64,000 nt of DNA from NCBI GenBank assembly GCA_017640445.1, contig JAEPQQ010000001.1, positions 56,769-120,768 on the forward strand, read 5' to 3'. Source of the DNA: Bacteroidia bacterium (GTDB lineage Bacteria; Bacteroidota; Bacteroidia; NS11-12g; UBA9320). Positions 2,730 through 62,757 of the stretch are shown piece after piece. The notes below the pieces were generated by a model, which worked only from the letters and a program-made list of their open reading frames with translations, made no database searches and was not told the DNA's origin. Position 1 is the first letter of the stretch. Every line of letters starts with the position of its first letter. The position numbers were made by a program, and so were the translations under genes.

Positions 2730-2815
2730 GTCTCTTCTGATTTTCTCCTTTTAGCTTTTTGCAATACTTTTGAAACCCCGCAGAGGCGGCAGGTAATCAT
2801 ATAAATTCTGAAGAA

Positions 2816-43897: not shown

Positions 43898-44013
43898 AAT
43901 GGGTACGGTGGTCTTATAAAGCCATTCGGAAAACCTTTTGGAATATCCTATTAGATAGGGGAGATGTTTCGGAGTAAAAGCCGAAACATCTCCCAATAAA
44001 TCAGTCATATGGC

Positions 44014-44772
44014 TTATTTCTTAGGGACTGGTATTGAGTTTATAACATTGGTGTGATATTGACTTGTGGTTTCGATTTTTTGCAACATTCTTGCTTTACC
44101 AGTTCCATCAGACTGAAGGTCGAAACCATAGGTAAGTGACAGGATAGGCACATAAGAATCTCCTACTTGTCTCACTAGAGATAACTCAGCGACCCAATAA
44201 ACAGGACCATCTTGGTGCTTTGGCCTTCCAGGCTGGTCACTAAATGATCGATAGCCAATCTCCAGGTTGTCACCGTATACTGGCACCTTGTTCTTACGGT
44301 CATAACCCGAATAGAAATGTGGAGGGTCATTTGGTACCGGTGGATCTGTGTACTCAAGCTCCCTTAGAACCGGAGTGCCTCGATTATAGTTCAACAACTT
44401 GTACTCGTTATGTGGATAGTTGGTTTTGATGGTTTGGACCCAATTAACATAACCTACGTCGTCTGCAAGCTTGGTGTCTAGAACTATCCCGGTGAAATAT
44501 CCATTAATCGGACTTTTGTGACCATAAAAATCCAGACCCCTAGAAAAGGGCTCAAAGTGTATCACATTTACTTGACCAAGCTCACCCAGCGAATAAGTGG
44601 GTTTGGGATCGTTTAGATTCAGATACTCTCCAATTGGAAGGTTCTTTGCTTCATACTCCTTGTTCCAAGCCATTAAATCCTCAGTTGGTATACCAGTCCA
44701 GATCGATATTTTCGAGAACCAGTCGTTTTCTTCTATTTTCCATTTCCATACTCCATCCAGTAAAACCGAGTC
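44014..44772 (-). other. C-terminal variable (toxin-like) domain of the RHS protein, downstream of the DPSGA core terminus. It includes a LysM-like segment.
   Basis: The sequence after IIDPSGA is DSVLLDGVWKWKIEENDWFSKISIWTGIPTEDLMAWNK...NLPIGEYLNL (LysM-like spacing) followed by ~190 aa with no recognised family. Confidence 0.6.
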
Positions 44773-47700
44773 TGCACCCGAAGGGTCGATAATCCAGATA
44801 GGATTATTAGCGTAACATGAGTAACCGCTCTGGTCATGTTTGACAACTGGGTCGACATTCCACCTTCGGCCTAACCTACTATCGTATTGCCAGAATTGAG
44901 CGGTTAAACTGTTCCCCGAACCATGAATCTCATCATCAGCCTCTTGTCCCTGGAAACCATATTTATAAGTAGACGTAGCATAGCTCCCAGCTTCAAATCC
45001 CCGTTCGTCCATCAGGGAGCCAAACGCATAGTAGTCCTGTGCCTTAATCACATAAGGTATGAAGTAATCAATTGTTCCGTTAGAGGTATAATCAACGCCT
45101 TGCTTTCGGTCTTGAATGGTGACCAGTACATTGCCTAAGTGGTTTGACAATTCATAGGTCTTTAAACCCCGTTCCGTGTAATGAACAACGGTGTCAACTA
45201 CAAATAGTACATTGATTGGATAGGCCGAATAATCTCGAGATGTAAGACGAGAGTCGTCAAGTGTTGCCGTGAATTCTCGTTCTACTAACACCGTGTCAAT
45301 GTGCTGAACACCAATACGCGAGGACCCATAAATGGTGAACTCGTTGATCTTGAGCTGGTCGGTATAGTGACTACCGTTGGATGGATATGCACGCGTATAC
45401 GTAGCCAATACCTTGCCCTCACCATCGCGTATGTAATACTCAATTTGCCAGTGACTTTCATCGAGCAACGTATTGTTGTTGGAAGCATCCTTGGGCTTTA
45501 CAACCTTGTACATTCGGTTGTTGAATACATCATACCCAAACTCGAGATCTGGTTGCGCGTCGTTCGCACCTCGTTTGATTTCCTTGATCTTGCCAGAAGC
45601 CGTCCAAACAATTTCACTAATTGCAGAACTTTCATCGCGTGTTAGATTCCCTAAAACGTCATAACCATAGGTGTTATCTGTGTTGATTTGGGATGGAGTG
45701 CTTGTAAACGATGTACCTGGATCATCTACGTCATTGGTATACCTTGATGTAAGCAGGGGTTGATCATTAACGTGATACAACTTGTTGCTGTGCATGCCTT
45801 CCCAATTCAGGGTTACACTTCCTCCCGGCGAGCTGACTGTAGCCGATTTGCCACGCTTGTCATAATGGTAGATCAGGCTATCCATCTCCACAGAAGGTGT
45901 TAGATGCCCGTTTCTGCGTAACCGCGTAATGTTCCCATTTCCGTCGTATTGGAAATCTTCATAATATAAAGCCTCGCCCGTAGCACTCGTGTTTAACCAG
46001 GCATCCTGGGCCGAATTGATATTTTGAAACACGCGGTGTTTGAATATTCTATTCAGTTGATCGTAACGATATACGTTCCCCATAACATCGGCCTTCAGGC
46101 TTCCGTTTATGTAGTCATTTTCCATGGGAATCGAAGTGGTCATCATAGCAATGTTGCCATTGTATAAAGCATCATAAGCTGAGGCAACATCACTACCCGT
46201 TTTGTCTGGTCCGTAAGCACCACCGTTAATTGGCGTATAATCTTCGTTGAAATAAGAAAGGTCATACGCAAAGGCATCTCTTGCCACCCAACGATTTGGA
46301 TTGGTTGGAATTTGCATGCCGTCCTGGCCAATATCCTCGGTAGAATTGAGTACGGCGCCATTTACGCCTTTGACCCACCCTTGGAGCGTATATGCATAAT
46401 CCATTCCCTGTACATTGAGTTCCCCCAATTCCTGTCGTGCCAGCGGTCCATGGAAATAGTATTCATACCGCGATTCGCTCTCCCACGAATAATCATCTCG
46501 CGACGTTTGCACCTCAACCAGTTGATTGTTTCGATCATATACTAAACGATGTACAAACTGATCCGCTTGATTCTTTTGGTAAATGGTTTTAAGAACATTC
46601 CCACTTAAGAGGTCGAAGGTGTAATCGATGCTGAACAGGTTTCTCTCTAATGGTGCAAGTGTTGGTAAGTCTTGAACATAACGACTCAGGTTCCCCATCG
46701 CATCGTACGAGTAAAACACACCATGGTCGTACGTTGCATCATTGTTGTCGTTAACCTGTTCATAAGTCGAATAGGAAATCCAGTTGCGTAGGTTTTGTTG
46801 ACCACCAAGGTCTGCGAATGCATCATAAATCGGTTGGGAAGCATTGGCTTCGTCAAAATAACTTCGTAGAACTTCTGATTTGTAACTTGGGTTACCAGAA
46901 ACATCAAGCATATTGGTTACGGATGAGTTGGTGGCTGCGAACTCTGAAGTCATTCCTCCGGAGGGTGGGTTCTGAGGGTCAACGATTCCCGATTCAACCG
47001 TTCTTCCTAATTCGTCGTACACTGTGTAAGCGAATTTATTGTCTACAGCCTGGTCTTCGTTTTGACTTAGGATGGGGCGGCCAAGTTCATCGTACCACAT
47101 ATTGCTTTCGCCACCATCCGGTGTTTCTTGAGATACAATTTTCCCAAGACTGTTGTATCTATATTGAGTAGCCAGGTCGTGATAAGTAAGAGGTCGTGTA
47201 GCAAGGTTACCGGAACGGTAAGCTGCCGTTTTCGCAATGCGATCATTTGCCAAGAGCAATCGATCTATGTTACTCAGGCTGGCGTTGTCTACATCAACTC
47301 CCGCAGGAGGCACAGTTTTTACCAACGAACCGCTTCGGTCGTAGTAGTATAACATATGGTGAAGTGTTCGGTCGTTGTAACGAACACGCATTGTTTCCTT
47401 GAGAGAGTCGCTGTTCATGCATACGTTGACATACATACTGTCGAATAACTCGATACGCCTTTTGAGATAGTCGTCATACCGTGTAAGGGCGTTGGTCATG
47501 GCAACTTCGATGTCCTCTTCAAAACAAGGCTCAGGATCTACGATTGGCCGAAAAAAGGGTTTGTTGCATAGACGAGCACAGTTGAGACATGGAACTTCAA
47601 CACCAATATCAATAGTCTGGAAACGTCCCGTTAAACCAATTGTGTCATAGCAGTAGTCTTCAGAGCCGATGGTTACATTAGGACAATTAGCTTTGCTGCC

Positions 47701-50700
47701 CCAATATTTTTTAGGCATGCGATAGACTGCAATGAGTTTAAACATGTCAGGTGGTCGACACCCATGTACCTCCAGTGGTTTTACGTCAAGAAACTCAACG
47801 ATTTCGCCAAAGTTCCACTTTTTAGCGGCTGAGGGAAAGGTAAGATTGAAGGCCATTTCGTATCCATTTTGATCTTCAATGGTCACTACCAGTTCTGGAA
47901 CTTTGACCTCCTTCAGAACGTATTCCAGGTGATTTGAGAATCCATTGTCGTACAAGGTTGGGTTGTTGTAGAAAGAGTTGATGTCAAACGCACCTATTCC
48001 GGTGAAATTCCAATCTGTCGCATACAGATAATTCGGTTGGTCTTTTCGGGTTATTTGATCCAAGAAGGCCCTGAAAGCATCAAGGTACTCCATATCTACC
48101 GTATAGCATTTTGGGCAGGGCTTGGGCTTTGGGTCGAGTGTAACACCCGACGAACATGGACCGGTAAACTGAATAAAAGACTCTAGCGATTTCTTGCTCT
48201 GCGTAGTTCCGTTGTAACATTTGTTGAATCTCGCGTTGAAGAAATCTTCCAAGAGTGCAAACCAGTCTAGCATGTCTTGCACCGCCTGGGTAATAGTTCC
48301 GTTATAGGGGTGATATTGATAGTAGAGTTCACCAAGGTCGCCGGCTAATTGGCGAAGATTAGGCTGCGCGTATCCCGGATCGTCTGGTCGAGGGTTATTA
48401 ACCAGAAAGTCCTTGAAGGCCTGACCAATTGTTTCGCATGGTAGTTTTTCAACACAGGGGTCTTTTTTATGACAGCCACGAAGCTTGTTTAGATAGAAAG
48501 ATAAGCTATAACCAGCATTTGGATTGCATTTCGAGAATTCCAAATTCAACAGGCGTTCTATTTCTTCAAGTAGTGCAAGCCTTGCATCATTGATGGTTCC
48601 AGATCCGGTTTTGGACGCATCCATTATATCATATATGTCACCCATTTGATCAAGTGGGGCCAGATACAAGACCCCTGGTAAATGAGAGCTTATGTTGCCG
48701 AGGTTCTGACCATTTACGATCAGGTCGATGTTATAGGCTTCTCGAACGGCCTTCATGAAGTGAAAAGTGAGTCGGTCACAGGGAATGTTATCAACGCAAG
48801 GTTCTTTTGGATTGCACAGCAAGCTTTTATTCAAAAGCCAGTCCATGTCCTCAGCGTATTCTTCTAAATTGCTGCCGCTTATGTTGTTCCAGTTGGACGT
48901 GCTTGTCCACCCGTTTACGGTATTGCCGCTATTGTCCTTACGTTCACCGGTTCCCCACATCTTTTCACAGGCTTCTAAAAGGGATTGTATGTTGTCAATA
49001 GCAAAGCCTTTCTCGCGAAGCGCAAATGCTTCAAGGGTAATGGGAGGGGTCTGGGGTGGAGTTCCGGCAAGGTAGGAATCATAATCTTCCCTAATTTTCT
49101 TTAATTCTTTACAACCGCAGGTGTCCAGGAAACCGGTTTCCGTTTCAAACTCAATCTCGGGGTCACAGGTGGATTCATCTAAGCGCGTCAGGTCGGCAGG
49201 TGGGTTAACGTCCAATTGTTGCTGAATGTGTAGATTAGATTCGGGTGGGAACTTCATTCCTGGCAGATAGTCGTCAGGTTCGCATGGTGTCGGGTCGTTG
49301 ACAGGGATTCCTTTCCATAACTTACAACAGATTTGCCGCATGTTGTTGAAATTCCAGCTTGAGGGCCAACTCGTATTAAATAGAGAATCGTACAAATCTT
49401 CAGCTGGCAGGCCTCCTGAATGGCCAGAATCAAGGAGGTGCCCGATCTTCATAATGCGTTCGCATTGGCACTTAATCGATTCGACGTCCTGGGATTGGCT
49501 GACCTCGGATGTTTGCTCGCCTGGAATCACAAACCTTTCGTTGGTGGTTGCCCACTCAGTAGTAACTTTCTTACGAGCAAAACCGGCCTTTATGAACGGA
49601 CTTAAACTAGGCACTTTAAGAACAGGAGTTTCAGCAGCATAACGTATTTTCTCTGGCTTGCCCCCGTTGAGGTAGATGTCATCATTTTTCAGGTCAAAGG
49701 GATATGATTCGTCAAAATACGAAACCAATAATTTTCGGGATAGAGTATTCCAGAGTTGTCCGACCGTCGAATCATAACCTGGGTCAATGCAATTTCGGGC
49801 AAAGACTTCATACTCATAATATGTGAGGTTGAATCCAAACGACCGATTCACCCAGGTGGTGAGCATGTCTTGATACAACGGGTCTCCCGCAGCGAGTTTA
49901 ATTGCGGCAGAATCGTAACGCTCGTAGAATTGGTAAACGGGATCGTTTAAGTCCTTACAAACAATACAGTTTTGACACTTCTCTGCTGGGAATACGTGTC
50001 TTTGACTGGCCTTTGCCATTGCGAGGTCATGAGGGTAAGAACATCCACAAGAGTCTAGTATTGAATGAACTACCAGGTCAGGGCAGGCGTGTGGAGAACT
50101 CCATTTTATGGTATCACAAATACAATCATTTGCATCAGGGTCGTCGGTTGCTAAGTAGTCGTGTCCATAAACACCTGGAAATTGAATGAGCAGGTCATCA
50201 CAAATTCCTTCTTCAAACCAGTCATTCCCCAGATGCTTTTTAAATACATCATGTAGGTTGCCGAATGGGTAGGTAGTGGTATTTGTCGAGTTTTTTAGGG
50301 AGCGGGTAATAGAGCCATATGGGTTGTCAATATCACAGCCACTCATGCATAGATTCTGTAAATCCGCCTTGAAAGCATTGAAGTCGCCTTCGGTGAGGTT
50401 CGAAATCTTTGAGCAATCGCTCAACCATTCTATCCACATGTTCACGTTGTCTTCACAATTGCGTTCACAAGAACTCGTGATTTGATCGTTAATGAGATTT
50501 TCATAATCCTCGGCATTACATAAATTCATTATGCTTCCCCAACCTTGTTCAATATCATCAAGTGAAGAAATATCTTGAGCACCAGGCCATCGCGGTACGC
50601 CTAAAAGGCTCTGAGGAATTTCGAGGTCGCAGATGGAGGTTTGGTCACATGAATTGGTATAGTAGTCTTTCAGCCATGCACGTTTTTGGGATAGGTACAT

Positions 50701-53700
50701 TCCGCGAAGGATTGGCCAGAAAACCTCCTCCATGCAGGTGTCTTGCTCGGTCATATTGGTGGTTAGTCCGTTGTCCAAACGATACTGCTCATAAACTTCC
50801 CAAATGGTATTGGTGTGTGTCTGACAATCACCATTTGCATCAGGCAATAGATATTCAAAGGCTGTAAGACTCGTTTGGAAATCCGTTCCATGGGATGCAT
50901 AATAAGGCAGGTTTAGGATTGGATCACGTTCAACGCTGGCGGATATCTCGTAGGTCGTATAGTCAATTGTTTGGCTGTTTATGGTTCCAAGTGTGCCAAG
51001 TCCCAATCCCAGAGGATTGTAGTATCCCTTTTTCTGGGCCTCTCGGGGATCTTCGGTAGCTACGAGCTTTGCATCGTATTCGTAGGTGGTTTCAATCGCC
51101 TGGCATTTTGGATAGTAACAATACTCGGGGTGAATGTAGATCAGAGACTCTGCCCACGAACTTTTCCAGAATTTGACAAAATCAAGAACGGATTTGAGCT
51201 CATGAGGTCGCACAAATTTTTGACCGTCTATGACAACATGAGTTGCACCAGAAACAATATCGGGGTAGTTGTTGAATACCGGAATTAATGACTCGGTTCC
51301 ATCTGGGTCGTAATAGAGGTTGGCCGACGTGTTGTGGTTGAAAGGCACTCTCCAGTTGCGATCTGCGCCGCTGCAGGTACGCCATTGGTCGGATAGAATG
51401 GATTTCTGATTATAACCAGCGTCGCCAATCGTTTTGTCAACGTTTCCATATTCGTCCAAGGTGAAATACTTCATGTATTGACCACCAAGTGTGACATCGG
51501 CCAACATGTTTTGGTAGAGTATATCGCAAGGGGACTTTTCTTCACAAATCTCGTTGCACACTTCAATTAAATCCGAAAGCTCTTCTTTCACCGCGATGTA
51601 ATCTGTATGAGAGTTTGTGTCAATGCTGTTTTGCAAACACCAGTTTCGGATACTATCTCTGGTGGAATTCAACTCACCAATCTCATAATCACAATGTTCA
51701 CAGCTTATTTCACATTCAATAGCCATTTGACTTAGTTCCTCCGAAAGGAATTCCGTAAAGGTTTTAACGCAACCCGACTGTTTTAGGTAGTATTCCCGGT
51801 TCTGTTCGAGTCCATTTCGAGTCAGTCGAAGCGTTTTGACCAATGTATATTCACCTAGGCCAAGTTCAAGTGCAATGGGAGCGGGTTGTGCCTTAAAACG
51901 TATTGGTTTCTGACAATCGGCAGAATCGTCAATCGTACCCACCGTAGCTGTAATTGGGCCGCTAGGTATTTGTTCGTTTCCCCATTGGTCGATTAAGCTG
52001 ATGGTCATTTCATATTCACACGAGTAACAGAAGTTGGTGTCGCAAGCTGCCGACATCTGCAGGGGCTGGAATTCGTAATTGAATTTCCAACTATCTTTCT
52101 GAGTGACAAGAAATGTGTGGTTAATTACTTTTTCTTTTTGGTTTGAAACCGTGTTGTTCCAAAAGACATCGTATCCATCCACACCGGCTATATGACCAAT
52201 AGGTTCCAAACTTGGGGTATTGTCGTCATCACCCGCTAAAGCAGTTGCAATGGTTCGACCAAACAGATCTATATACGTTAGTGAAACCTGTCCATTGACG
52301 TCTTGCGTCATAATCTTTTTGTAGTTGGAATAAGGCCCCACTTCGGCCGCGAAAAGCACGTCTAGTTCTTCCTGCGTAGGAAGACCCTCCCATACTACAG
52401 TTTGCTTACCTTCACTTAACGTGGAATTGTGGTCGTAAGCTGTAAGTTGGTGAGTCTTACCAACAGAACCTGAACGGCTAAGCCGAACTTCAGGATCGTT
52501 TGTGAATTCTTGCTGTGAAAATGCATAACCATCGGCATCTGGTAGAAAGCTGTGTCGTCTTTTTACGTTCTCGGAGTACGAACTTGCTTGCAGATAGGTT
52601 TGAAACTGATCGGAGTAGTAATAATTTGAGCCAGACAAATCACTCATCTTATTCACCAGAATCTCATGAGAAACAGTGCTGCCTAAGTTGTAGTTTAGAT
52701 CAAAGTCAGTATAGCTGTAGTTCTGTCCGCTTGGATTTTGATTCAGTTTTTCGCGGAAATCATAACCTCGCTGATCGAAAACGGGTGATGGCATCACTGA
52801 AACCGCGGGGCGTCCGAGGTGATCGTAGATACTAGAGGCAACTACCGGGAGATCATTTTCGTGGTCCATGGATAGCTGACTACGCGTTCTAAGAAGACCG
52901 TCGGACCATTCAAGGAGGATGTCATATTTAGTTTCCTCTGCGTAGGTCGTAGACCTGTTCCAGTTCCTCGAAACATCGTAGTTCTGAACTTTTAGAGAAG
53001 TTTTTCCCGATGTCTGTCCAAGGCTGACTTGAGATTGGTCCGGTAAGGACCATAAGGTGGCAATTTTTCGACTTGATTGAGTTAGTTTTTCGCTTAGAGC
53101 CCGGACTCGATAAACCAAATACCCTTCTGGAAGAAAGATTGGGATGTCTAAACTCGTCCCGTCTGTAACGCGAATACGTGTGGCACTATGACGAAAATCA
53201 ATGTATATCGCAGACAATGGGGGGAGGTTTGGGTTTCGGTTTTCGGGAGACTGGATGAAGGCAAACTCAACTTCATATGATTCTGCTCCCGGTTTGCTTG
53301 GCCAGGTTAGTCTAATTTCCTGATCCTTTGCATTAACATTTGGCTTATCAGACGAAATGGACATCAAATTATGATCTAATGCATTTTTGGTCATCGCCTC
53401 AATTCGATTGATTTCGATTCGGTTTTCGAGTTGTATTACAGGAAGTTGCGCGTTGGGGTAGGTCAAACCAGAGCCTGTTACCGCGACATTGTTTATGGTA
53501 ACCTTGGACCAAATAACATCTTCTAACGTAATTACCACTCGGTCAACTTCCTTGGCAGTCTGACCTGGGTCATACTTCAATTGTATAGTTTTTAGTATGG
53601 GTGGTTGAGTCACAAACACATTGCCTATCAATTTGTCCGTCTCTATGGTTAGATCAATGTCGAACGTAATGGCAGAGGCAATTAGGTTCAAATTGGACCG

Positions 53701-54009
53701 GTCAATGTTGAGTATGATGCGGTTGTCCACTTTTCGATTGTAAAAACTTGTGGTCCATGCCGGGTTATTATAAATTGAACCTGTTCGGGGAGGAACGTCA
53801 TGTTGATTGTCCACAACCTGAGCGGAGGCGGGAAGCGATGTCACTGTATTAACCCCGGAAGTAAAGGGATATTCCTTTGCCTTGGCGTTCAATCCCGAAA
53901 TCAAGATCATGAACAACATCAGCGCGAGTGTAACCAGATTCGAACGGTGTCTGCCTACCAGTGATGCGTCGACTATTGTCTGTTTATTGGTTTGTCTGTA
54001 AATATTCAT
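44014..54009 (-). CDS. Giant (3331 aa) RHS/YD-repeat protein with an N-terminal signal/anchor, a Cys-rich ~2200-aa N-terminal region, an RHS shell, and a C-terminal polymorphic-toxin-like domain
   Basis: YD repeats from about residue 2220 (YYYDRSGSL, YRYNSLGKI, WYDELGRPI, YTVYDELGRTV ...). The RHS core terminus is QYDSRLGRRWNVDPV...YSCYANNPIWIIDPSGA. A 252-aa C-terminal extension follows. Confidence 0.9.
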   Translation of the reverse strand: MNIYRQTNKQTIVDASLVGRHRSNLVTLALMLFMILISGLNAKAKEYPFTSGVNTVTSLPASAQVVDNQHDVPPRTGSIYNNPAWTTSFYNRKVDNRIILNIDRSNLNLIASAITFDIDLTIETDKLIGNVFVTQPPILKTIQLKYDPGQTAKEVDRVVITLEDVIWSKVTINNVAVTGSGLTYPNAQLPVIQLENRIEINRIEAMTKNALDHNLMSISSDKPNVNAKDQEIRLTWPSKPGAESYEVEFAFIQSPENRNPNLPPLSAIYIDFRHSATRIRVTDGTSLDIPIFLPEGYLVYRVRALSEKLTQSSRKIATLWSLPDQSQVSLGQTSGKTSLKVQNYDVSRNWNRSTTYAEETKYDILLEWSDGLLRTRSQLSMDHENDLPVVASSIYDHLGRPAVSVMPSPVFDQRGYDFREKLNQNPSGQNYSYTDFDLNYNLGSTVSHEILVNKMSDLSGSNYYYSDQFQTYLQASSYSENVKRRHSFLPDADGYAFSQQEFTNDPEVRLSRSGSVGKTHQLTAYDHNSTLSEGKQTVVWEGLPTQEELDVLFAAEVGPYSNYKKIMTQDVNGQVSLTYIDLFGRTIATALAGDDDNTPSLEPIGHIAGVDGYDVFWNNTVSNQKEKVINHTFLVTQKDSWKFNYEFQPLQMSAACDTNFCYSCEYEMTISLIDQWGNEQIPSGPITATVGTIDDSADCQKPIRFKAQPAPIALELGLGEYTLVKTLRLTRNGLEQNREYYLKQSGCVKTFTEFLSEELSQMAIECEISCEHCDYEIGELNSTRDSIRNWCLQNSIDTNSHTDYIAVKEELSDLIEVCNEICEEKSPCDILYQNMLADVTLGGQYMKYFTLDEYGNVDKTIGDAGYNQKSILSDQWRTCSGADRNWRVPFNHNTSANLYYDPDGTESLIPVFNNYPDIVSGATHVVIDGQKFVRPHELKSVLDFVKFWKSSWAESLIYIHPEYCYYPKCQAIETTYEYDAKLVATEDPREAQKKGYYNPLGLGLGTLGTINSQTIDYTTYEISASVERDPILNLPYYASHGTDFQTSLTAFEYLLPDANGDCQTHTNTIWEVYEQYRLDNGLTTNMTEQDTCMEEVFWPILRGMYLSQKRAWLKDYYTNSCDQTSICDLEIPQSLLGVPRWPGAQDISSLDDIEQGWGSIMNLCNAEDYENLINDQITSSCERNCEDNVNMWIEWLSDCSKISNLTEGDFNAFKADLQNLCMSGCDIDNPYGSITRSLKNSTNTTTYPFGNLHDVFKKHLGNDWFEEGICDDLLIQFPGVYGHDYLATDDPDANDCICDTIKWSSPHACPDLVVHSILDSCGCSYPHDLAMAKASQRHVFPAEKCQNCIVCKDLNDPVYQFYERYDSAAIKLAAGDPLYQDMLTTWVNRSFGFNLTYYEYEVFARNCIDPGYDSTVGQLWNTLSRKLLVSYFDESYPFDLKNDDIYLNGGKPEKIRYAAETPVLKVPSLSPFIKAGFARKKVTTEWATTNERFVIPGEQTSEVSQSQDVESIKCQCERIMKIGHLLDSGHSGGLPAEDLYDSLFNTSWPSSWNFNNMRQICCKLWKGIPVNDPTPCEPDDYLPGMKFPPESNLHIQQQLDVNPPADLTRLDESTCDPEIEFETETGFLDTCGCKELKKIREDYDSYLAGTPPQTPPITLEAFALREKGFAIDNIQSLLEACEKMWGTGERKDNSGNTVNGWTSTSNWNNISGSNLEEYAEDMDWLLNKSLLCNPKEPCVDNIPCDRLTFHFMKAVREAYNIDLIVNGQNLGNISSHLPGVLYLAPLDQMGDIYDIMDASKTGSGTINDARLALLEEIERLLNLEFSKCNPNAGYSLSFYLNKLRGCHKKDPCVEKLPCETIGQAFKDFLVNNPRPDDPGYAQPNLRQLAGDLGELYYQYHPYNGTITQAVQDMLDWFALLEDFFNARFNKCYNGTTQSKKSLESFIQFTGPCSSGVTLDPKPKPCPKCYTVDMEYLDAFRAFLDQITRKDQPNYLYATDWNFTGIGAFDINSFYNNPTLYDNGFSNHLEYVLKEVKVPELVVTIEDQNGYEMAFNLTFPSAAKKWNFGEIVEFLDVKPLEVHGCRPPDMFKLIAVYRMPKKYWGSKANCPNVTIGSEDYCYDTIGLTGRFQTIDIGVEVPCLNCARLCNKPFFRPIVDPEPCFEEDIEVAMTNALTRYDDYLKRRIELFDSMYVNVCMNSDSLKETMRVRYNDRTLHHMLYYYDRSGSLVKTVPPAGVDVDNASLSNIDRLLLANDRIAKTAAYRSGNLATRPLTYHDLATQYRYNSLGKIVSQETPDGGESNMWYDELGRPILSQNEDQAVDNKFAYTVYDELGRTVESGIVDPQNPPSGGMTSEFAATNSSVTNMLDVSGNPSYKSEVLRSYFDEANASQPIYDAFADLGGQQNLRNWISYSTYEQVNDNNDATYDHGVFYSYDAMGNLSRYVQDLPTLAPLERNLFSIDYTFDLLSGNVLKTIYQKNQADQFVHRLVYDRNNQLVEVQTSRDDYSWESESRYEYYFHGPLARQELGELNVQGMDYAYTLQGWVKGVNGAVLNSTEDIGQDGMQIPTNPNRWVARDAFAYDLSYFNEDYTPINGGAYGPDKTGSDVASAYDALYNGNIAMMTTSIPMENDYINGSLKADVMGNVYRYDQLNRIFKHRVFQNINSAQDAWLNTSATGEALYYEDFQYDGNGNITRLRRNGHLTPSVEMDSLIYHYDKRGKSATVSSPGGSVTLNWEGMHSNKLYHVNDQPLLTSRYTNDVDDPGTSFTSTPSQINTDNTYGYDVLGNLTRDESSAISEIVWTASGKIKEIKRGANDAQPDLEFGYDVFNNRMYKVVKPKDASNNNTLLDESHWQIEYYIRDGEGKVLATYTRAYPSNGSHYTDQLKINEFTIYGSSRIGVQHIDTVLVEREFTATLDDSRLTSRDYSAYPINVLFVVDTVVHYTERGLKTYELSNHLGNVLVTIQDRKQGVDYTSNGTIDYFIPYVIKAQDYYAFGSLMDERGFEAGSYATSTYKYGFQGQEADDEIHGSGNSLTAQFWQYDSRLGRRWNVDPVVKHDQSGYSCYANNPIWIIDPSGADSVLLDGVWKWKIEENDWFSKISIWTGIPTEDLMAWNKEYEAKNLPIGEYLNLNDPKPTYSLGELGQVNVIHFEPFSRGLDFYGHKSPINGYFTGIVLDTKLADDVGYVNWVQTIKTNYPHNEYKLLNYNRGTPVLRELEYTDPPVPNDPPHFYSGYDRKNKVPVYGDNLEIGYRSFSDQPGRPKHQDGPVYWVAELSLVRQVGDSYVPILSLTYGFDLQSDGTGKARMLQKIETTSQYHTNVINSIPVPKK
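44773..47360 (-). other. RHS/YD-repeat shell region (~860 aa) of the giant protein
   Basis: Many Yx(Y)DxxGRL/NL-type repeats were read from the translation. The boundaries are approximate. Confidence 0.7.
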
Positions 54010-54027: not shown

Positions 54028-54708
54028 TTAAAGTTTGTATAGCTCAATTTGGTCTAATTCAGGTTCGTCCTGAAGCTCCAGCGTCTTGAGATTAATTACG
54101 TTAGCTGGATCTATGAGTACCGGTATTAGTCGTTCGTCTGTGTTGCGCTGAACCATCCGCATTACGGTGCGATGGATTTCCGACTGCCCAAGTGCATTTT
54201 TGCGCACCTGGGTCAAAACCGTCTCTTCCAATTCATCGGTGCTTCTCCGAAACTTGATCGTAAGGGTCACATCATCCAGGTAGTAGGTGTTGATTCGAAA
54301 AGGCCCTTCATTTTTCGACCTTATTATTTGGATGGAATCAGCGTTACTAAACCCAGCCAATTGATGAATCACGCTGTCCGGGATTTGATTTTTGCGTTTG
54401 ATCCGAATTTTGGCTCGGCGAACCGGTAATGGGGTTCTTCTTACCAGAGTTGCGATCTTCGACTCCGCATACACCGTTAGTACGTTGCTCGCCCATGTGT
54501 ACTGCCTGTAGGCATCCCCAAATTCCGTGTATGTTATGCCTTTACAGCTACCTTCTTCCATTTGCAGTGAGTCCGTTAAATCGAGGTTTACGTAGTTGTA
54601 TTGCCGCCAGGTTTTAAGGTAGCAAGCAGGTTTGTTGGGTTTTTCTTGTCCAAAACCTGGGATGTATAAGAATACTAAGAACAGAGATATAGAAACTAGT
54701 TTTTTCAT
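54028..54708 (-). CDS. Small secreted protein (226 aa) sandwiched between the two giant genes
   Basis: Signal MKKLVSISLFLVFLYIPGFGQ. It lies 5 bp after the SpvB-like gene stop and 18 bp before the RHS gene start. Confidence 0.6.
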   Translation of the reverse strand: MKKLVSISLFLVFLYIPGFGQEKPNKPACYLKTWRQYNYVNLDLTDSLQMEEGSCKGITYTEFGDAYRQYTWASNVLTVYAESKIATLVRRTPLPVRRAKIRIKRKNQIPDSVIHQLAGFSNADSIQIIRSKNEGPFRINTYYLDDVTLTIKFRRSTDELEETVLTQVRKNALGQSEIHRTVMRMVQRNTDERLIPVLIDPANVINLKTLELQDEPELDQIELYKL

Positions 54709-54713: not shown

Positions 54714-57700
54714 TTAATCTTTAAAGCTTTGGTAATTTTCACTGAGTGTCATGATGCCACGGTCTGTTTCCACCTTATTGCGTTGGAGACGTCCGGCTTC
54801 ATTGTATTCGTAGAATGTGGCAAAATTATTTGGTCCGAGACTGGCCATAAGTCGTTTACGGTCTTTGTCGTACACGTAAGCATTCATAATGGCATCTTCA
54901 GGGAAAATCATGATATCATCCACAAAACAGGGAAGGGCCGGCTCGCCTGTCCGTCTGTTTACCATAAACCGCATTCGCTCGATTTCTTCTCCTGCCAGGA
55001 GCGTAAAGCGATAGGTCATTTTTCTCCATTCATTGACGAAAACATCCGGTGTTTCAGTGGTTAACCCAACCGGTGTAGAAGTGCCCCCTACATCTTTGGT
55101 CAGGTGGAACTCGAATTGGCCTTCAAATCCTTCTTTTACCCAAAGTGAAACAATGTATTCCTGGTCTGTATCTGGTTTGAGGTAGAAGTTGGTTGCGAAG
55201 TGGCTTTTGGTAAGCACATTTGAAGGCGTACCAGGAGAAGGAGCGCCTTCGTCAGACGCATCGTTGTCTAGCTCAACGTCAGTCCAGCCATCACCTAACA
55301 TAAGGGCCTTATTGCCTGTGTGGGCCTGTTGTTCGCTTATGCGATTTACACCACCGATTAGGGCCTCACCTACACGCCAGTGTCTAAATGATTCACAGAA
55401 CTCTTCCTGCCAGTCAGGTGTAACAACCGTATTAAGGCCTAAGTAGTCCTGACAATTCAGTTCCACATAAGCGTCACCAGAATAGTCCTCAAAACTCTCA
55501 AAAAGTACTTCGTTGTAGGCGGCGTTGGATACAGCAGCGACTGGTAACGAACGTTGGTAATCATATAGGATAGAATTGCGTATACCATTGAGGGCACTAA
55601 CGGTTTCCAGATCGTTGCCAAGAAAGTCAGTTTTAGTTACGGAGTCTTTCCAGGTCCAGGGGTTTGTCAAACTTTGAGTTGAGTTCTTTTGCCAGGTAGA
55701 TGTAGATGAATTGTAGGTCCAGTAGGGTTTGAAATCTGATAAGTAACCCGATTCACGAATGTTTGTCGAATTGGGGTCGGTAGATACATCTTGCACCTGA
55801 ACCCGGGTAGAATGAGCGTTCCGCTTTTCATAATACACCACTTCGGATGCGGGTCGCCAATTACCCTTTAACCCGTATACATATGGGTTAATAATATCTC
55901 CCGGATGGAAAGCCGACCACATGGAACACAACGCACAGTTTGGAAGTGGATGCATGGGATTCTCATCGTCTCTTCCACAATCACAGGGCGCAGGTTTGCC
56001 ATAAAAAATCCCGTTACCCGCACCAGAATCCAAACTGTCATAGTGAAAGCCAAAGTCTTGAGTGTAAGAACTCGGAGTGTTGCGATAGCCATAACCATAA
56101 GCTGTTAGGTCACCACTAACCTGCGGAACTGCTGGTAGTGTACACATAGGCTCCGCACAGTATCTGAACTTATAAAGCATTTTGCGTTCGTCATGATAGT
56201 CGATTGTTTTCGCCGAAATAACTTTATCCCAATTTGCGAACTCATGCCACTTCCCGGTTGAGTGGTCTAGGGGGTTGTCCTTGAGTACAATGGTTTCCGC
56301 ACCATATGTCAACAGGTTTTTATGTCCTGAACGGAATACGCGAAGCCGATTAGTAGGTGTGGTGTTATTCCCAAGTTGATCAATTAGTTCAACGGTTCCG
56401 TTATGGGATGATAGCACCCAGTATTTTGTGGTGTTAGCGAAATCGTCGGGCACCAGAATGTCTCCTGGCAGTAAACTACCTGAAGGATCAGTTAGTGAAC
56501 TTCCATTCCACTGAAGCTCCACCGTTAAGCCAAGGTTCTCGTATGCTCCGGCAAGCTGACCGTTCATCCAGTAAGCTGGTTTGTTCAGGGTGTACACGTT
56601 GTCGTTAAATTCGTCCTTGGTCTTTGTCACCATCACTTTACCGGTTACTGCATCCCATGCCATGTTTTTGATAAAGGTGTGATTGCCCTTGTCCATGGTG
56701 TGAATCGAATCCAATATGCCATTTCGGAATACTTGTTTGGTTACAATCATGATCCGGGAATCGTTGGAGTGATATGCATAACTCCCAAATACAGAAGGTA
56801 TTATTGGGATTGGCATAGGGTTAGCAATGTCTACATTGGGTGTAATGGCACCATCCTGATTAATTTCAGTAGTTCGGAACGCAAAAACCGTGGGCACCAT
56901 TTGAACCCCCATTTCTACATCTTCAAAACTTCCATCTTTGCGTAAAACGGTAACGGTGTTGACCAATGCATTTTTAGAGTCCATTTTGTAGTGAAAAGTC
57001 TTCGATGTAATTGCATTTTTACCATTGGGCTTAAACGTTTTTACGGATTTGGGTTTGCCATGCATATCGTTTTGCTCAATCATAAAACCCTGTGAAGCGG
57101 CCGCAAACCCCAACTTGGCTTGTACGTCAAACCCAAACGTAAACTTCTTGCTATCACTTTCGGCTGGTTCTTTTGCAACTCCATCTGTTGAAGGTTCTTT
57201 GGACTTAAAGGTGTCTTTGAGTTGTGGAGAAGTGAAGTTCCGGATGCGCTTGTCGATAGTGGTCATTGAAGATTTGGTAGGAAAGTCATAGGCCGTATAG
57301 AATTCGTATTCGGTTCGGCCGGTTTGGTGCCTCACAATGTCTTGGTGTGGGGCTACATGTTGAACCGTAACCTTACTGTAGCCTACCTGGGCAGCTGGAT
57401 AAAACTCTTCTCCAATAGGTCCTAAATCGTAACCAATCGAAACAGAACCCAATGGCCCACTTCTTTTTCGCCGATATACGTCTTTTAGTGCCTCGTACTG
57501 AATCGGACGAACAAGTGGATTTTCCTCTCCTCCAATAAATGGTTCGTATATGGCAACACCTGAGGTAGATGTACTATCACTTCCTTTGTTGTAGGTGTAC
57601 AGCGTGGTGTAAGAAGCTTCCGATTCGGTACTATCCGACATGTGGTGCCAGCCGTCATAAGTGGTGACTGTTTTTACGCGATGGCCACCACCATATTTTT

Positions 57701-60700
57701 TTCTTTGTGGATGAAGAAGTCGAATAAACGATCGATCAATATCAATACGTTGAGCATGACTACGAGCCTGATAGTAATTAACCGAGCCCATAATCGACTT
57801 AATATACTCAGGTATTATGCCTACCGCCTGATTCACTGCATCATCGATTTTTTCTGATGTATTACTACGCTTGGTGTATCCTTTTGGATTCATGACATGA
57901 GGCACATTGCTCAACGCATATTGCAATGCCATTTTAGTTACAGGATTGACCTTAGTCGGCTGCAACCGTCCAAGTTCATATGGGGCCACCTTAATATAGG
58001 CTTTGTTTGTACTGGCAATATCACCGTGTTCTACTACAGAGAAGAAGCCGGAAACCTGCTCATTAGCCAGGCGTTCTCCGGTGCGCGCCAGGTTGACGTT
58101 GAAACTGAAAAAAACAAGACTGTCGTTAGTGATGTAATCGACGGAGGTGGTTCCGGGATCTTTTTCAAAGGTGATGTACAGGTTTGGGTCCTGTATGCCG
58201 TCGTATAATTCGTTGTCATCATAATCCGAAAGCGATCCTCTGATCCCACTAATGGGTCTCATTACCATGGCGGGTTCGTTTTGTACATACGCATAGTCAT
58301 CGGATTCGTAGGTCCAAGTAATTTTCCCGCCGGAGGGTAAGGTTACATCTGACATCATCCAGGCCGAGGCCCAGGTGTCAATATTGTTTGGGTCTTGGTG
58401 GGTATAAGGAAAGTGAGCCAAGGTCGTTTGACGGTCGTCGGAAACTCCACTTTTTTTGTACAGATCGAGTGGATGGTATGTACCCCACCGGTCACCACTG
58501 AGGTACGCATAATCTGGGTTAGCCGTATTGTACTCAAATAGGTAGGGGTCGGATGTAGCCATACCAAACGAATGGTCAATAAACTGAAGCGTATGCAGGG
58601 TAAGTTTACCACCGGAAAACTTAACATTTGAGCCATATCCGGCCACAAGATCCTTAAGAGGATGCTCGTTACAAGAGCTAGAAACGCTAGGTGCCTGGTA
58701 AGTTTTTACACCTTGGCAGAGGTCATAGGAGTACCCCAGTTTAATCTCTCGGGTTGGGCTGGCAGAAAGTCCGTCCTTTTCAAATGACGCACGGTCGAAA
58801 ATTTTGATGCCAACCAGGCATTTTTGGCGATTCCCAGAGGTATTGATGCCGCCATTGCGCCCGACATTGCCATAACCATCTGCGCGATCTTCAAGTTCGA
58901 AGACAACAATCTCGTTTTTGGTTTCAATGCTGTGCATATACCACTGTTCCCGTTGCCCGTATGAAAAACTTGCTTGATCATCGAGTTCGTCTGATTCGTA
59001 ACCTCTGGCCCAGTTTGCGTCTGTAAAAGGAGTTCTCCAGTTGAATAGGGAGTGGTACATGTCTGAGCTAGACGAGTTGTAATCCGGCATGCCATAGTTG
59101 AATTTGACATAATTCCCCAAGTCATCTTTTGTTGGGCCGTCGCCAGTTAAGTCTGAATAATCTTGAGATAAGATAGTGGTCAATAGGAAAGTACTGGCGT
59201 ATGAAGGCGTTTTAACCTCTTCAAAGAAGTTGTTGATACCCTTTTTGTTTGACTCACTGTCGTCTGCATTGCCCGATTTGGTATAGCTTGTGGTCTTGCT
59301 TAGGTAATCATCAAGGTCCTGGCCTGAGCCACTGCCGTCTACGGCAAACCGCACATTGTATTCGTTAACCTGATACACCGGCAAGCCAAAGTTGTATAAC
59401 ATACCGTCTGGTTGGAGTACGTTGATTTCGGAGATGTGGTGCCCCTTACGATAGTCAGAAGCGCGGTCTATTTCGTCATAATTAAGTGATGTTGACCCGG
59501 AACTGGTTGTGGAAACCCTATATGAGGTTTGACAAGCAGCTCCGGTTGATTCAAATTGATAGCTTCGTAGTTTGGCAGTGATGCCTTGTTTACTCGCCTC
59601 ATCGGCGGTAAGATAGGAAATGGCTTGCAGCCGAGCGCCACGCGACGATTTAGCCGCCTGTGCACTAAGTGTACCCATATCGTTTCCCTGAACGCCAACC
59701 ATGTCGTTGGTTATACGCCATGCCGATAATTTATCACGGGTATTGCTTTTGAGTCCAAACTTGATAGCCTGTTTGCCGCCAAGTTGGTTGTCATAGGCCA
59801 TATCTGTTTCCACAAACTCGAAGTCGTTACGCAGGGCAAAGGGCTCGTATGTACTATTGACACTCCTGTCTTTGAATTTTAAGTAGGGAGCTGCCTCGTT
59901 TTTGCCTTCCCAACGCTCTGTTTTTTTGATGACGTGTCGGAGCCCGAATTTTCCGGCAATTTCCCAGTTGGTGCCACCGCCTATTTCAACTTGTATTTTC
60001 GGATTGGTAAAGGTGGTAACCTTTCCGAGAGAAGGGGTAAGGATACCTATACTGTTTTGCTTAATCTTGAAACTGCCGCCAACCCCGTTTGCAGATACAT
60101 TAAATACGTCATAGGTTGCAACAGTTGGTGGTAGTTTTTGCGTTGTTTTGTCAATGACCATTGAGGCAACTTGATGGTCAAGGAGTGCTCCTTCAGCCTC
60201 GGTGCCTTCCTGAAAATAGAGGCTGCCATAGGCCTTGGAAGCCTTGAATTTTTTTGAGTACTTCTCAGTGGATACAACAACTTTTCCGGAGATGGCCCGA
60301 TCATCGGCAAATATTTTATCCCCTGATATGGCGAGACCGAAGACCTTGACCGATGCATGAATGTCAGGGTTAAACTGCGGGAGGTAAGAAGATGAAAGGA
60401 AGTTGGCCCCGAAATTGGCCACATCTGTTGCTCCATAGCGAAATCTGGGTTTCTTTAACGCCATGGACTTTAGCCCTTTTTCCGTACTGAATTTGATTGA
60501 AGGACTCGAAAGCAAGATGTGGTATCGTTTTTCTTTTCCTCCTAACCATCTATTGTCCAAAAAACCTATGCGCGGCACTACCTCATAGGAGTTGCCGTCA
60601 AACGCACTGTAAGACGTCTTAAAGTCAAGAATTGGTATTTTTTGGGTAATTGAGGAGTCTCGCAGAACTATGGCAATAATGGAGTCGGAAAGAGTTGAAT

Positions 60701-61292
60701 CTCGAATGACTTCACCCGTGAGGGTCTGAATGGTTTTGTTAGCAGATAATCCAAAGCTCAGGTCGTAATTGATGCCAAAGCCACGGTAGTTGTCATGGAT
60801 TATGGTGGGCAATCCATTCATCTTTATTCCACCGTTTAATCCGACTAACTCTACTTGTTTACCTTCCTTGTTGTGTGCTTGAAAGTCATACGCCTGTATA
60901 ATCCGGGGTTTCTTGTTGATTTTTTTCTCTACTTCGTCACCTTTAAAATCGTCGGGTATTCCACGCATGGCTCTTCCAATGGATCCTGCCTGAAGACTCC
61001 ATCCTAGACCTACCCATCCGGCGTTTTGCTCCGAGTTGATATCGCCCGAGTAGGTCAGATTAATTGGATAACCTCCAATGTCAAAGAGTGGAATAGAGTA
61101 TTGCATGTTACCAGTGAATTGATCCACTAGTTGACCAGGCCCAATCTTTTGAAATCGACTGTATTCCGGAGGTGTAGGCCCTCCTGTTGTGGCCATGGCA
61201 GTCGATATAAGGTCAACAGGGTTGAACATGAGGCCAACGGCCAGGATGCATAAAACTTTTGTGAGTCTGGATTTACGGATACGTATAAGCAT
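54714..61292 (-). CDS. Giant (2192 aa) protein with an N-terminal SpvB/TcB-like domain and C-terminal YD-like repeats
   Basis: The N-terminus PTPPEYSRFQKIGPGQLVDQFTGNMQYSIPLFDIGGYPINLTYSG...GWVGLGWSLQAGSIGRAMRGIP matches the SpvB (Salmonella virulence plasmid 65 kDa B / TcB N-terminal) domain pattern. The C-terminus is AYVYDKDRKRL...FYEYNEAGRL. Nearby is a Cys cluster APCDCGRDDENPMHPLPNCALC. Confidence 0.8.
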   Translation of the reverse strand: MLIRIRKSRLTKVLCILAVGLMFNPVDLISTAMATTGGPTPPEYSRFQKIGPGQLVDQFTGNMQYSIPLFDIGGYPINLTYSGDINSEQNAGWVGLGWSLQAGSIGRAMRGIPDDFKGDEVEKKINKKPRIIQAYDFQAHNKEGKQVELVGLNGGIKMNGLPTIIHDNYRGFGINYDLSFGLSANKTIQTLTGEVIRDSTLSDSIIAIVLRDSSITQKIPILDFKTSYSAFDGNSYEVVPRIGFLDNRWLGGKEKRYHILLSSPSIKFSTEKGLKSMALKKPRFRYGATDVANFGANFLSSSYLPQFNPDIHASVKVFGLAISGDKIFADDRAISGKVVVSTEKYSKKFKASKAYGSLYFQEGTEAEGALLDHQVASMVIDKTTQKLPPTVATYDVFNVSANGVGGSFKIKQNSIGILTPSLGKVTTFTNPKIQVEIGGGTNWEIAGKFGLRHVIKKTERWEGKNEAAPYLKFKDRSVNSTYEPFALRNDFEFVETDMAYDNQLGGKQAIKFGLKSNTRDKLSAWRITNDMVGVQGNDMGTLSAQAAKSSRGARLQAISYLTADEASKQGITAKLRSYQFESTGAACQTSYRVSTTSSGSTSLNYDEIDRASDYRKGHHISEINVLQPDGMLYNFGLPVYQVNEYNVRFAVDGSGSGQDLDDYLSKTTSYTKSGNADDSESNKKGINNFFEEVKTPSYASTFLLTTILSQDYSDLTGDGPTKDDLGNYVKFNYGMPDYNSSSSDMYHSLFNWRTPFTDANWARGYESDELDDQASFSYGQREQWYMHSIETKNEIVVFELEDRADGYGNVGRNGGINTSGNRQKCLVGIKIFDRASFEKDGLSASPTREIKLGYSYDLCQGVKTYQAPSVSSSCNEHPLKDLVAGYGSNVKFSGGKLTLHTLQFIDHSFGMATSDPYLFEYNTANPDYAYLSGDRWGTYHPLDLYKKSGVSDDRQTTLAHFPYTHQDPNNIDTWASAWMMSDVTLPSGGKITWTYESDDYAYVQNEPAMVMRPISGIRGSLSDYDDNELYDGIQDPNLYITFEKDPGTTSVDYITNDSLVFFSFNVNLARTGERLANEQVSGFFSVVEHGDIASTNKAYIKVAPYELGRLQPTKVNPVTKMALQYALSNVPHVMNPKGYTKRSNTSEKIDDAVNQAVGIIPEYIKSIMGSVNYYQARSHAQRIDIDRSFIRLLHPQRKKYGGGHRVKTVTTYDGWHHMSDSTESEASYTTLYTYNKGSDSTSTSGVAIYEPFIGGEENPLVRPIQYEALKDVYRRKRSGPLGSVSIGYDLGPIGEEFYPAAQVGYSKVTVQHVAPHQDIVRHQTGRTEYEFYTAYDFPTKSSMTTIDKRIRNFTSPQLKDTFKSKEPSTDGVAKEPAESDSKKFTFGFDVQAKLGFAAASQGFMIEQNDMHGKPKSVKTFKPNGKNAITSKTFHYKMDSKNALVNTVTVLRKDGSFEDVEMGVQMVPTVFAFRTTEINQDGAITPNVDIANPMPIPIIPSVFGSYAYHSNDSRIMIVTKQVFRNGILDSIHTMDKGNHTFIKNMAWDAVTGKVMVTKTKDEFNDNVYTLNKPAYWMNGQLAGAYENLGLTVELQWNGSSLTDPSGSLLPGDILVPDDFANTTKYWVLSSHNGTVELIDQLGNNTTPTNRLRVFRSGHKNLLTYGAETIVLKDNPLDHSTGKWHEFANWDKVISAKTIDYHDERKMLYKFRYCAEPMCTLPAVPQVSGDLTAYGYGYRNTPSSYTQDFGFHYDSLDSGAGNGIFYGKPAPCDCGRDDENPMHPLPNCALCSMWSAFHPGDIINPYVYGLKGNWRPASEVVYYEKRNAHSTRVQVQDVSTDPNSTNIRESGYLSDFKPYWTYNSSTSTWQKNSTQSLTNPWTWKDSVTKTDFLGNDLETVSALNGIRNSILYDYQRSLPVAAVSNAAYNEVLFESFEDYSGDAYVELNCQDYLGLNTVVTPDWQEEFCESFRHWRVGEALIGGVNRISEQQAHTGNKALMLGDGWTDVELDNDASDEGAPSPGTPSNVLTKSHFATNFYLKPDTDQEYIVSLWVKEGFEGQFEFHLTKDVGGTSTPVGLTTETPDVFVNEWRKMTYRFTLLAGEEIERMRFMVNRRTGEPALPCFVDDIMIFPEDAIMNAYVYDKDRKRLMASLGPNNFATFYEYNEAGRLQRNKVETDRGIMTLSENYQSFKD

Positions 61293-62494: not shown

Positions 62495-62757
62495 GCTTAT
62501 TTTTTTAGAAATGAAAAAACAGTAAAGTCTATTATGGTAAGTTGGAAACATGTAACCAAATCACCCCATTTATTTGATAAGATCGAAGGGCCGTTTTGAA
62601 TCTGGTAGAGTTGACTTTGATTCTGGTGTAACAGCAAATTGTGACTAGTTAGAGGCAGCTGTATTATTGTATTTCGCATTATTTATATTTGTGTAAGGGT
62701 GCTTCTGGTAAATCCAGAATGCCCGACTTACACAAACCCGCCCTTAAAAACCTGAAA

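Follow-up and report, generated by a model that had tools for sequence, protein, structure and literature searches.

A conserved cysteine-rich, mostly helical module before the RHS shell of a rare family of giant Bacteroidota proteins, probably an extracytoplasmic disulfide-stapled stalk

RHS cocoons offer a general means of toxin transport; for cocoons linked to neither a type VI secretion system nor TcA, and particularly for those of Bacteroidota, little is understood of how targets are reached and recognized. The Rhs/YD shells of SGS1, teneurins, and TcB bear receptor domains (PMC9935623), and in bacterial teneurin-like proteins the shell is preceded by beta-sandwich repeats (PMC6425310). 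Zhang et al. (2012) did not mention a cysteine-rich or disulfide module (PMC3482391), and no description of the module reported here was found in the literature on DUF6443 and related topics. A 64,000-nucleotide stretch of contig JAEPQQ010000001.1 from a Bacteroidia metagenome-assembled genome (MAG), here called the window, encodes a protein of 3331 amino acids (protein A; Table 1) that is identical to MBO6515022.1, which is located on a 133-kb metagenomic scaffold and is labeled "hypothetical protein" in GenBank. Protein A contains a cysteine-rich module of ~1540 residues directly before its RHS shell, and the best-supported reading of the data is that this module marks a rare variant of the RHS polymorphic toxins in Bacteroidota.

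Protein A resembles the DUF6443 RHS toxins of Bacteroidota in its signal-like N-terminus, DUF6443-like stretch, RHS shell, putative Rhs-associated core, and variable C-terminus, but differs from these in the added cysteine-rich, mostly helical module and in the presence of an upstream gene for a partner of 2192 amino acids (B). The DUF6443 match in A was weak (residues 353-434; 22 bits, under the 27.8 cut-off), and most A homologs had a precomputed match to this family (PF20041). The RHS region was identified by PF05593 (residues 2200-3331; 27.1 bits vs. a cut-off of 22), YD motifs spanning residues 2221-2824, and an identity of 30-35% with the RHS regions of 17 homologs. A putative Rhs-associated core was located at residues 2993-3078 (TIGR03696, 31.3 bits, E = 2.2e-7, just below the 32.5 cut-off), and a DPxG-like motif (IIDPSGAD) was present in the translation. 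The C-terminal ~240 residues found no counterpart in loci that encode A homologs with 45-58% identity over the rest of the protein, and this lack of conservation in an otherwise conserved protein is the pattern of a polymorphic toxin. Protein A thus combines the YD-repeat shell and the variable C-terminal domain that characterize RHS/YD-repeat polymorphic toxins. The C-terminal domain did not match any Pfam or known toxin family. Its first ~40 residues were LysM-like at a sub-threshold level (E = 0.18), which hints at a peptidoglycan-directed effector.

The original prediction, which was made from the sequence of the window, had placed a cysteine-rich module of about 1500 residues upstream of the RHS shell, at 47360-52100 (A residues ~637-2217). 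This module is real, and 63 of the 64 cysteines in A lie within residues 656-2197 (4.1% of the stretch; binomial P ~3e-20), with none in residues 1-655 and one (C3065) in residues 2198-3331. All eleven cysteine motifs quoted in the prediction were found in the A translation. Neighboring cysteines no more than six residues apart were observed 24 times, while random placement over the same stretch predicts 13.8 +/- 2.9 (P = 4e-4); the observed pairs comprised CxxC (6), CxC (4), Cx3C (5), Cx4C (2), and Cx5C (7). Close pairs are enriched, and their number is about two dozen rather than "dozens".

A word-indexed homolog search with A residues 600-2230 as query retrieved 17 relatives with 20-27% identity, namely Bacteroidota RHS proteins of 2100-2850 amino acids, mostly with a DUF6443 match; A itself, although present in the collection, was not among them. 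A follow-up profile search added only four proteins, and a search with residues 1410-2150 alone gave no homologs. An exhaustive HMMER search yielded 60 representatives among 1.84 billion proteins and revealed a long subfamily (3200-3650 amino acids, 24-35% identity) that shares the entire region 656-2197. The module is indeed unusual, as it is this rare and is not covered by any Pfam or NCBIfam model in A or in 34 aligned family segments; searches of PDB by sequence and profile, using the module and the whole of A, returned noise only. Complete family members always possessed an RHS shell, and the relatives are annotated as "RHS repeat-associated protein". The eight loci recovered in a one-genome-per-species scan all belonged to MAGs of uncultured Bacteroidota (UBA6063, Chitinophagaceae, Flavobacteriaceae, and Bacteroidia).

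The cysteines are the most conserved residues of the module. In the long subfamily, approximately 50 of the 63 show no or almost no variation, and ~30 cysteines between residues 656 and 1407, together with C2148, C2162, and C2197, are conserved in the relatives with 20-27% identity; the latter three are kept in at least 96% of all relatives. Cysteine accounts for 14 of the 31 invariant columns in one family alignment (A3) and for 19 of 43 in another (A2), in which it occupies 19 of the 26 invariant columns outside the RHS part. Each long relative and all 17 word-search homologs show the same layout, with a cysteine-poor N-terminus, a cysteine-rich middle, and a cysteine-poor RHS region, and homologs down to ~20% identity retain many of the cysteines. 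It is thus extremely improbable that the clustering is a compositional accident, or that the region is a fast-evolving, low-complexity spacer without a defined fold. The 86-residue stretch 1421-1506, which is predicted to be disordered and is poorly conserved, speaks for such a spacer; however, the strength of the clustering and a predicted local distance difference test (pLDDT) score of 70-90 for most of the modeled module speak against it, and the conservation of the cysteine columns already refutes it.

Residues 626-2198 of A, which link the N-terminal region to the RHS toxin shell, are interpreted here, with a probability of roughly 0.55, as a disulfide-stapled, extracytoplasmic stalk or scaffold in a rare family of giant polymorphic RHS toxins of Bacteroidota. 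The first line of evidence is the joint presence and absence of cysteines, which was counted in 81 family sequences merged on a hidden Markov model in A numbering (these statistics ignore phylogeny). Cysteines 1181 and 1225 were both present in 55 sequences and both absent in five, and neither was ever found alone. The counts for both, only one, only the other, and neither were 47, 2, 3, and 5 for the pair 656/747; 55, 0, 3, and 3 for 964/969; and 13, 0, 0, and 4 for 1931/2120. The pair 791/1164 was gained together (6, 1, 2, and 28, respectively). Pairwise variation is expected for disulfides, and not for metal sites with four ligands.

The second line of evidence is geometric. Two twin Cx3C motifs, with 40-52 residues between the partners, were each located on two helices predicted to run antiparallel (171-194/203-222 and 567-596/608-624 in model numbering) and at matching distances from the hairpin turn predicted by AlphaFold2 (AF2). 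Twin Cx3C or CHCH hairpins, as in the small Tim proteins and the Cox17 family, consist of two antiparallel helices that are joined by an inner and an outer disulfide. The motifs of A (766/770 with 818/822, and 1181/1185 with 1221/1225) share the arrangement of two Cx3C on antiparallel helices; at the level of motif and prediction, their geometry fits disulfide-stapled hairpins, in which 1181/1225, the pair lost together, would be the outer one. In contrast to the small mitochondrial proteins, those of A are embedded in a 1540-residue module of an exported bacterial protein, their disulfides are deduced, and there is no sequence homology between the two groups.

Export would provide the oxidizing compartment in which such disulfides form. 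The segment at residues ~22-44 is the only window of A with a Kyte-Doolittle hydropathy >1.6, and the N-terminus is likely a Sec signal peptide. A hydropathy scan detected one N-terminal hydrophobic segment, and no other, in each of A, B, and two proteins encoded nearby (p406 and p859). In p226, a small protein encoded between B and A, no window exceeded the threshold, and its translation begins with a signal-like segment (KKLVSISLFLVFLYIPGFG). These N-terminal segments, which are read as signal peptides, are consistent with export to an oxidizing compartment, and we infer from them that the module is extracellular.

The paired cysteines might instead bind metals, as zinc knuckles or iron-sulfur clusters, and the module would then be an array of metal-stabilized or redox-active sites. 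A resemblance to metal-binding motifs is seen in the CxxC and CxC pairs and in the invariant KCQNCIxC (Cx2Cx2C) with the likewise invariant C1407; the C-rich motif of teneurins has been likened to putative motifs of this kind (PMC6425310). However, the cysteines of A are lost in pairs and not in fours and are unevenly spaced, many partners lie 40-50 residues from each other on predicted helices, as in twin Cx3C hairpins, and neither zinc-finger nor iron-sulfur profiles matched A or the 34 aligned family segments. Moreover, an extracytoplasmic iron-sulfur protein is expected to use the twin-arginine translocation pathway, whereas A has a Sec-like N-terminus and no twin-arginine motif. Metal binding is accordingly considered improbable. 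The conserved paired cysteines, their pairwise loss, the twin Cx3C hairpins, and the export-like N-termini together favor disulfides over metal sites, two options that had been left side by side in the prediction.

Two AF2 models generated from family alignments, which covered residues 600-1420 (m36c41cde5153, pLDDT 72.8) and 1400-2300 (mdf1dcce7d492, pLDDT 65.1), predict a mostly alpha-helical module with the domain order presented in Table 1. The first beta-sandwich had weak Foldseek matches to jelly-roll or tail-fiber-like structures (E >= 0.0015). It is followed by a conserved, non-repetitive core that contains a few small strands, the motifs SPGGQY, HPEYCYY, and KCQNCIxC, and both twin Cx3C hairpins, and that is common to the two subfamilies. 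No cysteine occurs between residues 1407 and 1514, and the disordered linker within this interval separates the conserved core from a variable array of units, where it may serve as a flexible hinge. Only helices were modeled over residues 1507-2028, and the hairpins of the RHS shell begin at ~2220. Between the second beta-sandwich and the shell, the cysteine cluster at 2141-2148 was modeled at low confidence and is followed by a long helix (2163-2198); this segment leads into the RHS shell and may act as its plug. Foldseek searches of PDB gave no significant match for either model: one retrieved generic alpha-solenoids (E >= 0.05), and the other retrieved jelly-roll or tail-fiber-like structures through its sandwich only (E >= 0.01). 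A structure search of BFVD gave the same picture.

Table 1. Coordinates of gene A, the predicted parts of protein A, and the adjacent genes p226 and B in the window.
Feature	Residues of A	Position in window	Strand	Basis
Gene A (3331 aa)	1-3331	44014..54009	-	Open reading frame and translation; exact look-up = MBO6515022.1
N-terminal region	1-44	53878..54009	-	One hydrophobic segment at ~22-44 (...LVTLALMLFMILISGLNAKA)
Cys-free N-terminal region	45-625	52135..53877	-	Aligns with all homologs
First beta-sandwich, predicted (C656, C661, C664, C699)	626-729	51823..52134	-	Strands at model positions 27-130
Conserved non-repetitive, mostly helical Cys-rich core, predicted	730-1420	49750..51822	-	AF2 helices, alignments A1/A3
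Cys-free, poorly conserved linker, predicted disordered	1421-1506	49492..49749	-	pLDDT <50, model residues 31-106
Helical unit 1, predicted (CxC 1514/1516, CC 1561/1562)	1507-1612	49174..49491	-	hhalign vs. unit 2, AF2 helices
Helical unit 2, predicted (C1615, CxC 1631/1633, C1681)	1613-1729	48823..49173	-	hhalign vs. unit 1
Helical unit 3, predicted (C-x5-C-x5-C 1732/1738/1744)	1730-1843	48481..48822	-	Smith-Waterman and hhalign vs. unit 4
Helical unit 4, predicted (C-x5-C-x5-C 1846/1852/1858, C1931), tandem duplicate of unit 3	1844-1949	48163..48480	-	
Helical unit 5, predicted (C1952, CxxC 1965/1968)	1950-2028	47926..48162	-	AF2 helices
Second beta-sandwich, predicted (C2084, C2109, C2120)	2029-2139	47593..47925	-	Strands at model 630-740, pLDDT mostly 70-90
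CLNCARLC (2141/2144/2148) and predicted long helix bracketed by C2162 and C2197	2140-2198	47416..47592	-	Helix at model 764-799
RHS/YD-repeat shell	2199-3090	44740..47415	-	PF05593, YD motifs, homolog identity
Variable C-terminal (toxin) domain, no assigned family	3091-3331	44017..44739	-	Unlike closest relatives
p226 (226 aa), between B and A		54028..54708	-	Signal-like N-terminal segment
Gene B (2192 aa), hydrophobic N-terminus		54714..61292	-	Directly upstream of A-like genes

A large helical region that adjoins a toxin cocoon could also be a membrane-insertion or translocation device that carries the toxin across the target envelope, comparable to the T-domains of colicins and diphtheria toxin or to the TcA channel. 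RHS toxins must somehow cross target membranes, and the operon offers no evident means of doing so; the absence of a known fold in the Foldseek searches leaves room for such a device. However, the module contains no hydrophobic helices, the only window of A above the hydropathy threshold being that of the N-terminal signal; dense disulfide stapling would probably impede the unfolding required for membrane insertion; and the variable number of units and the inserted domains described below suit a display scaffold better. Translocation by the module is therefore a poor candidate in comparison with the disulfide-stapled stalk.

The prediction had further compared the module with the cysteine-rich EGF and C-rich domains of teneurins, described it as a long array of mini-domains, and proposed a search for teneurin-, EGF-, or laminin-like profiles. 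Teneurins and bacterial teneurin-like proteins do share with A a cysteine-containing extracellular region and a beta-sandwich before the YD shell, and domains added to such shells function as receptor modules (PMC6425310, PMC9935623). However, strict and relaxed regular expressions for PROSITE-style EGF, laminin-EGF, and the teneurin C-rich motif, which reads ExxCx(D/N)xxDx(D/E)xDxxxDCxxx(D/E)CCxxxxCxxxxxC (PMC6425310), gave no hits in A, and no EGF or laminin profile matched A or the aligned family segments. EGF and laminin arrays are beta-rich knots with short units of 30-60 residues and a fixed number of six to eight cysteines, whereas the units of A are helical, ~80-115 residues long, and contain three to five cysteines each, and the cysteine density of the module (4%) is far under that of EGF-like domains. 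Teneurin-type proteins are characterized by a TTR-like domain, an FN-plug, and an NHL beta-propeller ahead of the YD shell; no NHL or other propeller was detected in A between the sandwich and the shell, and A had no sequence match to any teneurin chain in PDB. The teneurin and EGF analogy thus fails for every defining feature tested, while the general idea of an extracellular stalk before the shell survives. The mosquito protein SGS1 (3364 amino acids) is similar to A in size and in having an RHS shell with a beta-sandwich and other putative receptor domains (PMC9935623), but differs in possessing two propellers, a carbohydrate-binding module, a lectin domain, and helices inside the shell, in lacking a cysteine-rich helical stalk, and in having no sequence match to A.

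Internal repeats, evaluated by windowed Smith-Waterman comparisons and by profile-profile alignment (hhalign) of family sub-alignments, were restricted to residues 1507-2028. Pairwise comparison detected one clear duplication (1722-1835 vs. 1836-1950, i.e., units 3 and 4; z = 10.6), which hhalign also recovered (96.8% probability, E = 2.7e-10), together with homology between units 1 and 2 (94.7%, E = 5.8e-8). Unit 5 was only weakly similar to units 3 and 4 (13-15%), similarity across unit types was insignificant, and no periodicity was detected in residues 656-1420 by either method. A CxC, Cx5C, or CxxC typically lies close to a helix start, or in unit 5 slightly ahead of it, and each unit adds one or two further cysteines; all four cysteines of unit 2 show full or almost full conservation across the aligned relatives. 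Short-subfamily proteins aligned to the unit-2 profile (E = 1e-5 to 1e-9) over the segment bounded by the counterparts of A1281 and A1347, and the end of the conserved core may be a related unit, which in A itself (unit 0, residues 1285-1425) reached a probability of only 13% against unit 2. A uniform array of five or six units was rejected, as only units 1/2 and 3/4 are clearly homologous. The array of mini-domains is thus reduced to at best two duplicated pairs of ~115-residue helical units in a mostly non-repetitive module.

The module differs considerably in length and content among the relatives. The equivalent of A 1420-2140 ranges from 0 to 719 residues, with intermediates that retain one unit-2-like unit, or unit 5 and the second sandwich; unit copy number varies, and unit 4 is missing in about half of the long subfamily. 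One relative (P0005) carries a Kelch propeller inside the core (residues 1153-1584, between the equivalents of A1281 and A1347; Kelch_1, E = 1e-14), and another (P0010) has a Laminin_G_3 or ConA-like lectin domain shortly after the RHS region begins (residues 1545-1788, E = 1.4e-14). A third (P0008) contains a 787-residue insert with 20 cysteines and no family match (residues 922-1708), and several further inserts of 240-550 residues had no Pfam match. Tolerance of length changes and inserts of ligand-binding type are expected of an exposed presentation or adhesion module and constitute the main, indirect support for a putative binding role, with which the Kelch and lectin-like inserts appear compatible.

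Several points weigh against a disulfide-stapled extracellular stalk. The disulfides are deduced, the counts of joint cysteine loss are uncorrected for shared ancestry, and Cx2Cx2C and CxC motifs also occur in metal sites. The number of cysteines in the module (63) is odd, and at least one must be unpaired; C879, which is unique to A (one of 35 aligned sequences), is probably the unpaired one. The models are of moderate confidence (pLDDT 65 and 73; predicted template modeling score ~0.5) and were built from shallow alignments (14 and 20 sequences), and hence do not fix the relative arrangement of the domains. The putative signal peptide was assigned from its hydropathy and by visual inspection. 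Furthermore, p859 begins 5 nt past the stop codon of A, and the window has no immunity gene directly downstream of the toxin gene, which makes a bacterial and a eukaryotic target both possible. Possible explanations are loss of the immunity gene from this position (44008-44016), its location at another site, or a target other than a sibling cell. Small open reading frames follow the toxin gene in two related loci, L003 (16735-17265, 176 amino acids) and L005 (11471-11950, 159 amino acids), and are possibly immunity genes.

Gene B accompanies A in other genomes. A tblastn search showed the order B-(p226)-A in five independent loci from both subfamilies (L002, L003, L005, L008, and L009); counterparts of p226 with 30% identity occupy the matching position in L003 and L005, and open reading frames of 224 and 235 amino acids fill it in L009 and L008, respectively. 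B is as conserved as A (31-54% identity among loci) and may be a second subunit of the toxin system. It had no relative in Pfam, NCBIfam, or PDB, even when searched as a five-sequence profile, and its C-terminal end is a single YD-like repeat. A resemblance of the N-terminus of B (…FTGNMQYSIPL…LTYSGD…GLGWSL) to the SpvB/TcB N-terminal motif was dropped, as Pfam and phmmer gave no support. The cysteine cluster that was predicted in B and thought similar to that of A exists (APCDCGRDDENPMHPLPNCALC, residues 1768-1789), but comprises only four cysteines, which are conserved in L003 and not in L008.

The module could be chiefly a docking platform for B and p226 in a multi-protein holotoxin, as TcB/TcC is docked on TcA, with target recognition residing in B. 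The conserved gene order, the export-like N-termini of A, B, and p226, and the equal conservation of B and A agree with this explanation, and the TcB-TcC toxins resemble the system in having a toxin inside an RHS shell and a multi-gene operon of very large exported proteins. On the other hand, no similarity was detected between B and TcA, TcB, or any protein of solved structure, and the units and inserts are the most variable part of the module and would be an odd choice for a conserved interface. Unlike the Tc cocoon, the shell of A is made by one protein, and no SpvB, FG-GAP, beta-propeller, or TcA match was obtained for A or B in Pfam, NCBIfam, or PDB. Tc components are not known to contain a cysteine-rich module. 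Docking as the chief function is considered less probable than a stalk, with which it is compatible and not mutually exclusive. A broader proposal, that B, p226, and A form an unrecognized extracellular toxin-delivery complex of Bacteroidota, a functional analog of Tc toxins built from unrelated parts in which the module is a new fold and a length-adjustable arm with exchangeable inserts for receptor binding that tethers the RHS cocoon to B, is tentative and rather unlikely.

If the module is a disulfide-stapled stalk, A would be exported by Sec, and ~28-31 disulfides would then lock the helices into a rigid, protease-resistant scaffold outside the cytoplasm. The number of units would set the length of the stalk, which could bear inserted binding domains, hold out the toxin-filled RHS cocoon, and help it to contact a target surface or the conserved partner B. 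The C-terminal toxin would then be delivered and released as in RHS systems generally. The family adds to the RHS toxins a large, conserved, unannotated module that is probably helical and disulfide-stapled, varies in unit number, and accepts inserts of binding domains. As an adhesion or presentation stalk, it would constitute a new domain family and a novel means of arming RHS toxins; a complex with B, if it exists, would amount to a new multi-component toxin system. In protein engineering, the module could be of use as a stable helical scaffold outside the cell.

The protein p859 (41429-44008, minus strand) combines its N-terminal hydrophobic segment with a long, charged stretch that is probably a coiled coil, has a C-terminal half rich in beta structure, possibly an outer-membrane barrel, and had no family match. 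It was rejected as a conserved member of the operon, as the ~865-870-residue proteins downstream of A in L003 and L005 are unrelated to p859; these two (~870 residues) are 52% identical to each other. The first gene of the cluster encodes p406 (61331-62551, minus strand; 406 amino acids), which has a signal-like N-terminus and seven cysteines, four of them within residues 145-170; its sub-threshold Cys_Knot_tox match (E = 0.015, 15.9 bits vs. a cut-off of 27) is probably noise. A LytTR-type response regulator is encoded divergently beside the cluster (62689-63501, plus strand), followed by a histidine kinase on the source contig, and may regulate the cluster. The rest of the window contains ordinary chromosomal genes and no tRNA or Rfam features, and a supposed plus-strand array of immunity-gene paralogs turned out to consist of ordinary housekeeping genes. 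A Porphyromonas-type peptidyl-arginine/agmatine deiminase (PAD_porph, 23771-24889, plus strand; E = 1.5e-88) was found among housekeeping genes that encode GcvT, an epimerase, and a methyltransferase, which is consistent with a Bacteroidota chromosome and not with a mobile element.

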